A DNA stretch of 64,000 bases. It comes from Eledone cirrhosa (lineage: Eukaryota). The position numbers were made by a program, and so were the translations under genes. Under the pieces are notes generated by a model. That model was not told where the DNA came from. It ran no database searches and saw only the letters and a list, made by a program, of their open reading frames with translations. The DNA lies in NCBI GenBank assembly GCA_964016885.1, contig OZ024747.1, forward strand, positions 88,164,001 to 88,228,000, given 5' to 3'. Positions 1,933 through 40,235 of the stretch are shown piece by piece; position 1 is the first letter of the stretch; every line of letters starts with the position of its first letter.

Positions 1933-4441
1933 TTAAGAAACAAATAAAAGATAAATAATAACAAAAATTACAAAAAGAGGGTAAAATTAATTAAAATCTG
2001 TAGGGTAGTATTCTCAAGGTACTGCTCTATATTCTTCAATAAAGCATGGCTATATAATTAAGTTTGTTTCATAATCCAGTGTTTCTGGGTTCAATCTTAC
2101 CTACTTCATGTCACTATCTTGGGCAAGTATATTCTACCATCACTTGGAGTCAACCAAAGTCTTGTAAGAACAGCAGCTGATCAGGTGTGTGTGTGTTAGT
2201 CTGTGTGAAAACTATTAATTTCTTCCTTGGAGTATTGCTGATTTTTATGTGCTGTCTATTTATTGGTTACATGTTATCGAGGAAAGACAAAGTCAACCCT
2301 GACTGGATTTGAACTCAGACTGTTAAGGAATTGAAATATTCTAAGCTTCATACTTGACAATTTCTTTCACCCCAAACCCCCATTTTTTAATTTTTTTTAT
2401 TTTACAATAAAATCAATACTTTATTAAGTAATATGAATAGCAACACTTCAAATTGCAAATTATTATTAGAAAGCTTTCTATAAAACTGAATCATAGACTG
2501 CTTCATCAAGTCTCTTCCTATGAATTATGCTCAGAATAGGTGACAATAATAGAGACAATATTACCAGCCATATTGTATTGTTGAATTGATAATGTCTTTC
2601 CGATTCTCTGCTATGTCAACCATGGTGTTCCTAAGAATCCATTTCCCCCTGATGTTTATCTACATCACTGACTGCTCTCAATTACTTTTAACCACACATA
2701 CTCCCACACAGATATCAATTTTTTCACATTTTCCTATATTCTTTACTTTTCTTTCCTTTGTTATTAAGAGCTGTTTTCTCTGTTATCTATATATTCTATC
2801 AATGTAAACCTTTACTATATTCTTTAATAGTAATCTGATAAACAATGAAACACAAACATGATTTGTTTCCAGGAAGAAGAACCTTAACAAAACTTCAATT
2901 CACCTGAACAAAGCTCTACCTATATAATCATTCATTTGGTATTTAACATAACAAGCAACTTATGAGAGCTTCTATGTTGTTGCTTGAATTGTCTTAGCAC
3001 CTTCACAACCATATTTCTAATGAAAGACATTACTTATTATATGAAAAAAAAAAAAAAAAAATTTAATAATCAAGAATTTAGAAGAACTTAATAATATAAC
3101 TAATTTTTGTTGTTGTTACGTTTGGAGTATAACTTAACAAACGTTCAAACATAACATTATAATGAAAGGTTTTTTTTAGATAAATATAAACACTAAAATA
3201 AACAGCTTAGTTTCATAGTAACAGGCACTGTTGCAGGTGGGTTGATATCATAAAAAAGGAAGTGCATATTGGATAATATATTCTCAGTTAAACACTCCCT
3301 GAAAACAAAAATGCCATGGCTTGAACACTGTTGATCATAGGTTTGCTTGATCAGGACTGACACATGGCTAAACACTGACAACAATTTTTTTATATTCTCA
3401 ACATTGCCTAAACTTCTGTAAAATGACTTAGGATTTTTTTTTCATTTTTTTTTTTTTAGAAAGAAGTATTTCAACCCCAGCAGTTGATAACTATTTTCAG
3501 ATCCCAAACTATTTCACTATGATACACTTTTCTCACACTGGGGAAAGTGCACTTCCTCCAAGCATTGGCATTCTGATCAATAAACCAAATCAATAAACTG
3601 TTCTATATTAAAACACTTCATTCCTTCTTTCATTATATTCTTCATTATATTCTACTGTTGCTATAATGGACTTTGACTTTCAAAACATTCTAGCTTCTAT
3701 ACAGGCCAAAAATAAACAATCTGTTCTACCCATATGTATTCTATTCTTTTCATTCATATCATGTTTTTCTCTTTAAAACTTGGAGCAGATATTTTATCAT
3801 TTCTAAAATTCGAGGACCACTCCCATGACTCTCCTCTTCTCTTCAGTGTTTCCACAGTATACAGACATCTGACTCTTTAATCAGAACATTAACTGTTCAA
3901 TTCTTATTAATATACAGGCACAAACATTGTTGTGTCACTAAGAAGTTCACTTCACTACAACATGATTTAGGATTTACTTCCACTACTATAGCTTCAAGTT
4001 GAAATGCCTTGTCAGTGGGATTTGGTAAACAGACTCTACAGAATATTGTTATTTATATCATCATCATGTAATGTCCACATTTCTGTGCTGGCTTGAGGTA
4101 ATGAAAAAACGTTTCATTCCTCCAAATTTAGGTACTTAATGTTAAAAAAAAATCAACCTTAATGTTTCAATGTTACTTCTTCCTTTTCAGAGTTTTAGAT
4201 AGAAATGGAAGGGAATTTACCTAAATATTTCTAGGAAAAAACACAAACTTTCAATGAGATCTTAATTTATAATGAGAAAAGAATGATATGTTGTGTATTA
4301 TATTAATGATGTGGCTTTGTTTGAATTTTTTCTTCAGATTTAAGGAGTAGGATTTTTTTTAGAATTCAGTTTTGATTTATTACTAATGAAATAATGTATA
4401 ATTTAATGAATTTTTAAAAATGATTTATTTATATTCATCAG

Positions 4442-4678
4442 GATGACAGTGATGAAAGTAACTCCTTATCTGGATCCCACATTGATGTTAATACAGTCTC
4501 AGGAAACCTTATCCAACATCCCAAGCCAAGTCCCAAAAACCTTAAAAAGATCAAAGCTATACAAGAATGGGAAATAATTAATGGATTAAAAGAAGGAGAG
4601 AAATGTGAAGAAAAACCAGAAAAATATCAGGGATATTTACTTAAAAAACGAAAATGGCCCCTAAAAGGTTGGCATAAG
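4442..4678 (+). CDS. OSBPL6: OSBPL3/6/7-family gene, coding exon (start of PH domain); first coding exon I can identify in the window
   Basis: ttcatcag| acceptor and |gtaggt donor; 79 open codons ending ...EWEIINGLKEGEKCEEKPEKYQGYLLKKRKWPLKGWHK. KKRKWPLKGWHK is the ORP3/6/7 PH-domain signature. Confidence 0.93.
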
Positions 4679-6074
4679 GTAGGTTAATATTTTATTTTGT
4701 ACTTTGTTTAGTTTTATTTTGACATTGTACTGTTTGATTTCTGTTTGTAATTTGTTCATCATCATCATGGTTTTTACATTCAAGTTCAATACTACTACAT
4801 GACACTTTGGGCAAGTATCTTCTATTATAGCTTCGGGTTGACCAATACATTATGAACGAAATTTGTTTGATGGAAGCCCATTATAATGAGAGAATAGTCT
4901 CTGCAGGGTAATATAGAAACCACAAAATACAAAGGCTACAGTCTGATGACGTCCATAGCCTTCATAGCAGTAATTGGAGTAAGCTGGTTGTTATTTTACT
5001 GAGAGGATTGGGGTATGGTTTTGAAGGTTGTGTTTGAATTTAATTTATAGCTGGTGTGGTATGATATGATGGATAAGGTTCATTGTTGGATTATGATCTG
5101 TGTTTGCTTGAGTTCATGGATAGCATGGATTTGGTTAAGATTTGTGATGATAGCAGCAAATGGTGTGTCAGGATTTTGGAGGTGAGTGTTATGATGTGAA
5201 AGATTACTACTATGGAGTAATAATGGAGGGGGCTTGAATGGCATGGAGTGTACACTGATAGCTAGGATAGCTGATAAGGAGTGCTAATGGAGGGGGAGCC
5301 TTTTGGACAGGTCGGGTTACATTTTATGCTCATAGGTAGGTCATCTCTACTAGTCAGCATATTGCCAGTTCTTGTTCTCCTTTCTCTTCTCCGTTGTGAG
5401 GTTCAGTTATATATATGTGATCAACTAAAGGCCTTCAAAGCAGTGTCTTCATGACCACAATATAATGATTGGAGCCAGTATAAGATTATTCATAAGAAAG
5501 CCCCAAAAGCTGTAAAACATTACCAAAGAATAGATGAAACTCTCAAGTGTTGTTACATGTGATATAATGAGGGGAACAGTATCTATTGCTGTTGGTAGTA
5601 GGAAAAAGAGAATTTACTGCTTTTTCTAGCACACAGGTACTGTCTGTTCATCAGTCCTGCTATTTATATATAGAGAGCAAAATACTACTCCACCTGTCAC
5701 TCAGTCAACCTCCCCCACTCTCTCTAACTAACTAAAACTTTTCTAGGTGTTTTTGTTTGTTGTCAACCAATCTGACATCTATTTCCGAAACAAAGGCAGA
5801 TTAGAGGGGTCTCTTGGAGTTACAGATAACGACATCTCAGCCATTTAAATTTATAGAAAAGCATCTGCTGGGGATCGCAAAGAAGTTTTTATTTCCTGGG
5901 GTTTTTCATGTTTTCAACTAATCTGACTTCCGACATCCTCACAATCACCTTCTTTTCTGATAACGGAATTGGAGGGGGACCCTTGGCGTTACAGATAAGC
6001 ACCTCTCAAAAATTTATAGAAAAGCAATCCGTTGATATTGAAGGATGTTTTGATCCTTCATCATTTTCACCTTT

Positions 6075-39366: not shown

Positions 39367-39900
39367 AAAGTATATACTTTCCTTATGAAAATTAACGGCT
39401 GAGCAGCCTAATTTGCATATCGAGTGAGTTCAGTCGGCCAGGCGTACCGAAAACAATAAGTTGTAATATAATGAAACGAAATTTCATTTCTCACTCTTAG
39501 TACGGCACTTACTTAAATGTAAGTATGTATGTATACGTACATACATATATGTATACAGACGTACAGTAGCATGCATATATATATATATATATATATACAT
39601 ATATACATACAGGTATACATATATATATGTACGTATCAGTTTAGCGAACATTTATTATAACGCCCGCTTTGTCCGTTTGTAAACAAGCGAACAGCCTGAT
39701 TTATGCCATACGGTGTTCAACACTGACACAGGAACGATGTACTAGTTTCAAGCTTGTTAGCTATCATCAGCACCGTATACCCTTCTACCAGATAGTTGAA
39801 CGTTCGAAAGTATATACTTTCCTTATGAAAATTAACGGCTGAGCAGCCTAATTTGCATATCGAGTGAGTTCAGTCGGCCAGGCGTACCGAAAACGATAAG

Positions 39901-39903
<3 letters not shown>
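39367..39903 (-). mobile_element. Short non-coding element with 97-bp direct terminal repeats and an internal hammerhead (retrozyme-like or non-autonomous PLE)
   Basis: 39367-39463 equals 39807-39903 with 1 mismatch, period 440 bp; flanked by (TA)n; contains the hammerhead fold at 39734-39776. Confidence 0.7.
39734..39776 (-). ncRNA. Minimal type I hammerhead ribozyme
   Basis: Minus strand reads ACGGUG-CUGAUGA-U-AGCU(AACA)AGCU-U-GAAA-CUAG-UA-CAUCGU: 6-bp stem I, complete core boxes, palindromic ACUAGU stem III, GUA triplet. Confidence 0.78.
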
Positions 39904-40017: not shown

Positions 40018-40048
<31 letters not shown>

Positions 40049-40235
40049 ATAATGGAGCTGTGGCATTGCAAATGGGTTACATATGAAAAAGTAAGTCCTT
40101 CATCAGTGGCCTTCTAACTGTCCTACGTGGCCTTTAAAGCGATGAAATGCCTAGGACGGTTGGAAGGCCACTGATGAAGGACTTACTTTTTCATATATAT
40201 ATATATACATGAATATATATATATATATATATACA

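Follow-up and report, generated by a model that had tools for sequence, protein, structure and literature searches.

A tandem hammerhead family in Eledone cirrhosa, probably a non-LTR retrozyme copied by a Penelope-like enzyme

The 64,000 nucleotides of the Eledone cirrhosa genome analysed here (the window; contig OZ024747.1, positions 88,164,001 to 88,228,000) contain at 39367-39903, on the minus strand, about 1.2 units of a non-coding tandem family that bears a type I hammerhead and whose insertions end at two fixed sites in (TA)n. In our assessment this family is probably a non-LTR retrozyme, the predicted RNA circles of which would be copied by the reverse transcriptase and endonuclease of a Penelope-like element (PLE), probably one of the Hydra clade. 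Mobilisation of the Penelope type, proposed by a first sequence-only reading of the window, gained support from paired long and short ends, inverted arms and (TA)n targets.

The window copy and its family

A DNA search of the organism's own genome (3.0 Gb) gave 380 matches in the best 40 of 3,157 candidates, and 108 stretches out of an estimated several thousand loci were examined: 40 best-hit stretches, an unbiased set of 48 stretches with the first 100 core matches on contig 1, and 20 loci from end lists. The family takes the form of head-to-tail tandem arrays inside (TA)n, dispersed over many contigs, with a typical unit of 465 nt (L021) and a range of about 420-500 nt (422-500 in 20 diverse units) that stems mainly from an internal (TA)n tract. 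Two or more hammerheads are present in 52 of 181 arms, and arrays run for up to 17 units head to tail without an ORF; the longest ATG frame in the unit measures 54 aa, in agreement with the initial description of the element as non-coding. The family also occurs on contigs of two other organisms (2 and 28 contigs, respectively), obtained from four assembled sequencing runs of which the other two gave none. Of the 24 runs compared, 18 had a share of 5% of the family's words, too low to count as evidence of its presence, and the only run recorded as RNA, likewise at 5%, yielded no contig.

The window copy consists of one arm that starts near unit position 300 and ends at unit position 398. As originally noticed, its extremities are direct repeats of 97 nt (99% identical, one mismatch, offset 440), the first copy (unit ~302-398) lying at 39807-39903, where its 5' end meets the (TA)n target through TATAT-like microhomology, and the second, which is the start of the next unit, at 39367-39463. 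A monomer of 440 nt had been deduced from this offset; the family unit is instead about 465 nt long, and the shorter value results from a private 25-nt deletion between two AACA words (39713-39717), matched by none of 275 junctions in 107 other loci. The internal (TA)n-rich tract, of variable length and at the tip of a long predicted hairpin, lies at 39576-39632 and serves at other loci as an insertion target of other elements. Two sites at which family members typically end are read through in this copy, namely the "short" 3'-end site (39514-39519, unit ~246-251), located in a small hairpin loop, and the "long" site (unit ~309, at 39456), which closes a "tail" of ~58 nt (39456-39513). Its own 3' end, at 39367, is off both sites, as in roughly 4 of 95 sampled arms, possibly through aberrant priming or later deletion. 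The flanks are (TA)n/CATGAA satellite in which no target-site duplication is recognisable. That the copy is recent, as had been supposed, is borne out by the nearest units, which differ from it at 1 of 208 and 1 of 277 bases. With a single hammerhead, this copy is unable to release a monomer by itself, and is likely a young, one-armed dead end.

The exons downstream and upstream of the insertion agree with its earlier placement antisense within an OSBP-family gene. Oxysterol_BP exons were found on the plus strand 46-54 kb past the window end, and plus-strand exons in the window at 4424-4684, 21615 and ~31400 are PH-like and, we presume, belong to an OSBPL3/6/7-like gene; a Pfam scan of the first putative PH exon (4424-4684) gave no match. 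As it lies between these two groups of exons, the copy is probably intronic and antisense. Close to it, at 40046-40195, a separate multicopy element in (TA)n has two short unequal inverted arms and a CTGATGA word inside, and matches in 8 other sampled stretches; it has the appearance of a minimal PLE-type insertion with two arms, from another family.

Three related tandem families are present in the sampled loci: A2 (422 nt), B (with G-C at stem II of the hammerhead) and C (310 nt, with U-U at this position), the family of the window copy being referred to as A. Members of B (L028:4950-5650, L023:1500-2100 and L021:5624-5738) have a canonical G-C stem II and GUU or GUC sites, and a tail hairpin is common to A and B. 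Family C (L096:6200-8600, L119:4400-5620 and L045) is made of identical 310-nt units with a U-U stem II and an ACGCGU palindrome; both of its insertions that were viewed have the long/short two-end anatomy described below, and in L119 it is nested in the internal microsatellite of family A. Besides these, 88 sampled stretches and the window yielded over 50 other distinct motifs that resemble hammerheads, mostly PLE types with a long stem II, and the genome is thus very rich in ribozyme-bearing elements. An octamer-like word was considered as an snRNA-type promoter, an idea that comes from newt satellite 2; it occurs in A and B, is changed in A2 by what is a compensatory hairpin change, and is absent in C, which leaves the promoter unsupported, and a literature search on this idea brought up nothing pertinent. 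Long older arrays of at least 17 units at 25.07-25.35 Mb of contig 14 (L036, L045-L047, L059) lie in segmental duplications of ~7.9 kb, and represent secondary amplification at the DNA level.

The hammerhead motif

On the minus strand, positions 39734-39776 can be arranged into a type I hammerhead core with the complete set of elements reported from the sequence at the outset. Stem I is formed by 6 bp between ACGGUG (39776-39771) and CAUCGU (39739-39734), CUGAUGA (39770-39764) and GAAA supply the two boxes, stem II begins with U-U followed by 4 bp and an AACA loop, and stem III is a palindromic ACUAGU of 2 bp; the site is GUA, with a predicted cut between 39740 and 39739. Beyond the core, stem I continues past a UA(U) bulge (39779-39777) into further helices (39715-39801), which would place the ends of a cleaved monomer next to each other.

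The covariance-model check that had been suggested came out negative: an Rfam scan of the window element returned no hammerhead model match and 55 weak microsatellite or hairpin rows, none over the gathering score. The isolated 71-nt hammerhead stretch is likewise not unusually stable compared with shuffles (z 0.62). The reality of the motif therefore rests on the copies. The element had been predicted to be multicopy, and an exact 31-nt core has 13,960 matches in the genome against 0 for the reversed control. Conservation of the core in other copies, also predicted, was seen in 210 segments from 77 loci, where none of 12 core columns shows more than 10% variation, compared with 86 of 364 other columns, and the stems covary across families; the freely varying hammerhead positions are N7 (32%) and one base of loop II (18%). 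With a core mean of 1.7% and a median of 2.1% for the other columns, the two values are close, and the conservation signal is thus the absence of subfamily-level change. The U-U pair of stem II (U10.1/U11.1), initially taken for a defect, is a family-wide feature that varies in at most 1% of the 210 segments, and it has an active precedent in the axolotl HHR_Amex2, which shares it and cleaves 22% as a monomer and better as a dimer according to PMC7229834.

Covariation was assessed on 11 rows from related families, representing three or four lineages only. In this set 94.9% of helix cells pair and double-sided changes affect 10 of 16 hammerhead pairs across three families, far above slid controls. 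In all rows the UA bulge of stem I is kept, with three further pairs beyond it. As stem I extends past this conserved bulge, the motif is canonical by the definition given in PMC4209133, and the minimal PLE type (long stem II, short stem I and no tertiary-contact loops), to which it does not conform, is ruled out; the earlier term "minimal" is thus replaced by canonical or extended. Taken from the alignments, these patterns support the view that the hammerhead is kept under selection.

Two observations speak against activity. In thermodynamic folding of family A, stem III has values near 0 and the inner pairs of stem I reach 0.13-0.20, as mispairing between the core and the palindrome of stem III is possible, and an inactive alternative structure is predicted; in the vertebrate retrozyme study (bioRxiv 10.64898/2026.07.22.740005), 8 of 9 Xenopus dimers are given as not cleaving in vitro. 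Folded as a circle, the monomer is 70% paired (z -7.6 against 30 shuffles), and the units are 58-71% paired (z -4.5 to -13.5, again 30 shuffles); the consensus circle fold has double changes in 10 of 108 pairs, with a covariation term near zero.

Two 3'-end sites and the template that was copied

The two sites read through in the window copy are where most insertions stop. Once pieces <50 bases, three segmental duplicates and arms that reach the edge of a stretch are set aside, the unbiased set comprises 95 arms. The long site (unit 287-311) is the end of 44 of them and the short site (unit 238-256) that of 39, so that 83 arms stop at one or the other of two fixed positions ~58 nt apart; a further 8, some of them interrupted by nested insertions, end within the internal microsatellite, and 4 end elsewhere. 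Across the whole genome, search patterns of unequal stringency count 2,074 junctions of the short site with (TA)n and 1,877 of the long site, and 139 of 149 ends run into (TA)n. The expectation that copies would be circular permutations with variable starts was not borne out, as variation is confined to the 5' ends, the 3' ends lying at two fixed sites.

Where two arms lie head to head, they almost invariably combine one end of each kind. The unbiased set contains 33 such pairs, 25 of them classifiable at both ends, and all 25 join one long and one short end (24 without a local duplicate; binomial p about 1e-7); in the best-hit set the same holds for 17 of 19 classifiable among 29 pairs. At the 20 loci from end lists, apparent same-site pairs mostly split by eye into separate long/short insertions, which left one old short/short case and two off-site ends, and the exceptions to the rule are old or broken copies (L044, L052, L164). 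Arm-to-arm junctions overlap by 1-29 nt in 24 of 34 cases, mostly by 1-4 nt, and the insertions have inverted, 5'-truncated arms with a tail at one end only; any target-site duplications >4 bp would be hidden by the (TA)n targets. At L103:4357-4400 and L138:4520-4590, the head-to-head partner of the unit arm is a short arm from a different palindromic repeat family, which is very common.

By analogy with the PLE anatomy described in PMC8557442 (inverted truncated arms, tail at one end), this two-end, inverted-arm pattern is a PLE integration footprint. In the in vitro work on the anole PLE reported in PMC11167929, reverse transcription starts at two internal sites of the RNA, which delimit the tail, and the protein, a predicted dimer, cuts and extends both strands and uses uncleaved RNA. 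We infer from this comparison that the two DNA ends would have been primed at different sites, one at each.

As to the template, the arms pass through the cut site intact. In 9 of 53 multi-unit insertions all units are identical (L023, for instance, with 8 units over both arms), fully identical arrays reaching 8-9 units, and in 29 of the 53 rare variants are fixed in every unit. In older arrays the variants are mostly singletons. Variants common to subsets of units exist as well (L021, L024, L036, L128), for which a pure monomer circle would need later duplication or conversion. When units of the two arms that lie equally far from their start sites are compared with other units, they are closer to each other in 6 insertions, further apart in 8 and equal in 6 (n=20), and hence no closer overall.

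The 5' ends were compared with the cut site. Only 5 of 114 clear ends fall there, against 4.4 expected (67 of 181 ends are ambiguous), in an overall spread that is non-uniform (p 0.005). Genome-wide, 20 (TA)n junctions lie exactly at the cut, compared with 5 and 17 at control positions with less and more microhomology, respectively, which gives no clear excess, and no 3' end at the cut followed by (TA)n was found, as at the control (0). An initial impression that 5' ends accumulate at the cut was an artefact of the query boundary and was gone with a rotated query. One arm (L168:2575-2849, a single case) ends one base before the hammerhead cut site; it may stem from priming on a cleaved linear RNA, at its 3' end.

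The identity of units across both arms of young insertions, together with the lack of a 5' pile-up at the cut, favours a circular monomer template, and a monomer circle would most simply explain this identity, as far as the inserted DNA can tell; a young homogeneous linear donor is a possible alternative. More generally, the family might be a non-autonomous PLE copied from long uncleaved linear transcripts of arrays, with a weak or protein-dependent hammerhead and circles that are irrelevant to transposition. We regard this as unlikely, even though the anole PLE of PMC11167929 uses unprocessed RNA with a hammerhead that is dispensable in vitro, misfolding is predicted for the core and some arrays have variants restricted to subsets of units. 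Against it stand the rare variants found in all units of both arms in more than half of the multi-unit insertions, the long identical arrays, the lack of positional correspondence between the arms of the 20 insertions compared, and the covariation and conservation of the tertiary-contact features of the hammerhead.

In the circular reading that we prefer, arrays would be transcribed, self-cleaved to monomers of ~465 nt and ligated into the predicted circles. A two-subunit PLE protein would then, to judge from PLE biochemistry, nick both strands of a (TA)n tract, and reverse transcription would be primed by the DNA ends, with the short site (unit ~250) used by one of them and the long site (~309) by the other; both ends and their pairing are seen in the insertions, while priming at them is our interpretation. 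Each reverse transcriptase would pass the intact hammerhead junction for 0.2 to at least 9 units, lengths observed in the arrays, and rolling round a circle would best explain the multi-unit arms. Finally, two cDNAs would join head to head, mostly through the small overlaps seen at the junctions, or one cDNA would join the target directly.

The mobilising enzyme and known systems

The sequence-only reading had reasoned that copies with fixed ends attached to a PLE ORF would simply be PLE pseudo-LTRs. The fixed ends were found; an ORF at a fixed place was not, since the sequences upstream of 53 unpaired arms have nothing in common at any fixed position of the unit, and matches to PLE proteins precede 4 of these arms only, at differing positions or orientations. 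Pfam gave a weak RVT_1 match for 3 of 9 flanking ORFs, and the anatomy of an autonomous PLE, an RT and GIY-YIG ORF between pseudo-LTRs, was not recovered. That the unit is nevertheless the pseudo-LTR or 3' UTR of an ORF-bearing PLE outside the sampled copies is very improbable: the PLE-type tail and inverted arms would suit such an origin, as would the small share of the loci covered by the 108 stretches, but the whole unit repeats head to tail up to 17 times without an ORF, no fixed upstream sequence accompanies the arms, and the PLE-linked hammerheads in the sampled loci have a long stem II, unlike the short one of the retrozyme. Amplification of a satellite at the DNA level (by slippage, unequal crossing-over or DNA rolling circle), with a vestigial or chance hammerhead, would fit the large tandem blocks and segmental duplicates on contig 14, some unit-level shared variants and the missing Rfam match, but it is strongly disfavoured, and the least credible of these readings, in view of the strand-specific and fixed 3' ends, the long/short pairing, the dispersal in (TA)n over many contigs and the compensatory changes in the RNA helices.

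A candidate source of the enzyme for the non-LTR retrozyme is present in the same genome. A young PLE at L140:1-3400, which has an open frame of 805 aa and a 3' UTR of 1.1 kb, shows 97-100% identity in 40 scored copies of 3,003 candidates; it has the motifs DKT, CxCx5C, and CxxC and CxH around E and N, and no CCHH, and by inspection of these motifs it would belong to the Hydra clade. Hydra elements seem abundant in the genome. The family of this PLE (L115 family, with the open frame in L140) has its own two ends in (TA)n. One chimera, at L115, has a fragment of the PLE endonuclease fused directly to the unit, and the 3' end of the same PLE as its second arm; the long/short rule is kept, with the PLE arm ending at the PLE long site and the retrozyme arm at the short site. 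In another, at L034, a PLE frame truncated at its 5' end stands head to head against an arm of the unit. Both chimeras could be deletions or nested insertions. No significant sequence similarity was detected between the unit and the one Hydra element compared (L115 family). With (TA)n targeting and an intact Hydra-type ORF both present in the genome, the mobilising enzyme is, by analogy, likely of the Hydra clade.

More tentatively, both subunits of a Hydra-clade PLE dimer may read one circular ribozyme RNA at once from two dedicated internal start sites, each rolling independently, with the ~58-nt tail region as a cis signal that would let any RNA circle hijack a PLE. We give this bolder version somewhat less than even weight.

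The closest known systems are the metazoan non-LTR retrozymes described from coral, mussel and axolotl (Cervera and de la Pena 2020, PMC7229834), with HHR_Amex2 of axolotl as the nearest motif. Shared with these are tandem non-coding units with one canonical type I hammerhead, a GC content <50%, a highly self-paired predicted circle, a 2-bp stem III and U-U at the base of stem II. The Eledone unit is longer (~465 nt compared with 170-400 nt), and is inserted into (TA)n without visible target-site duplication; two-armed inverted insertions, two fixed 3' ends and (TA)n targeting do not figure in the description given there. The family resembles Poseidon PAc (PMC11167929) and the Hydra clade (PMC8557442) in that insertions are truncated at the 5' end, have inverted arms head to head with a tail on one side only, and lie in AT-rich or (TA)n targets, and in that the hammerhead is read through intact. 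It differs from these PLEs in its lack of an ORF, in a tail of ~58 nt compared with 30-40 (PMC11167929, PMC8557442) and in a canonical hammerhead with short stem II instead of the long-stem-II PLE type. Non-autonomous Chlamys elements such as MRC1 are similarly presented in PMC8557442 as non-coding PLE dependants with multicopy head-to-tail insertions. By that account these generally resemble their autonomous partner at the 3' end, which the retrozyme does not in comparison with one Hydra element, and most Chlamys lack a hammerhead, whereas the retrozyme unit has one.

The vertebrate study (bioRxiv 10.64898/2026.07.22.740005) likewise reads retrozymes as non-autonomous PLE sequences; the evidence it presents is co-occurrence and pLTR similarity in Xenopus, while ours is the integration footprint. 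A review of 2020 (PMC7761336) states that metazoan retrozyme repeats show no conserved motif that reveals a mobilising partner, and hammerhead loci of the giant squid appear in the text of its genome paper as a count (235). Our literature search, which excluded subscription papers and the supplement of PMC7229834, returned no report of this family or of a two-start-site retrozyme footprint. The kind of element, a non-LTR retrozyme, is therefore known, and the family and its footprint appear to be new.

That another mollusc-like genome has a retrozyme is unsurprising in itself. The mobilising enzyme of retrozymes is left open in the literature, and here thousands of young insertions carry the PLE footprint itself, in a genome that also has an intact Hydra-type ORF, and pinpoint two exact candidates for the start sites of the RT on the RNA. 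The published in vitro PLE assay can thus be applied directly to the question of the enzyme, and the strictness with which long and short ends pair sets a quantitative constraint on the unknown second-strand step of PLEs. If true, the simultaneous reading of one circle from two start sites would answer how metazoan retrozymes are primed and by which enzyme.
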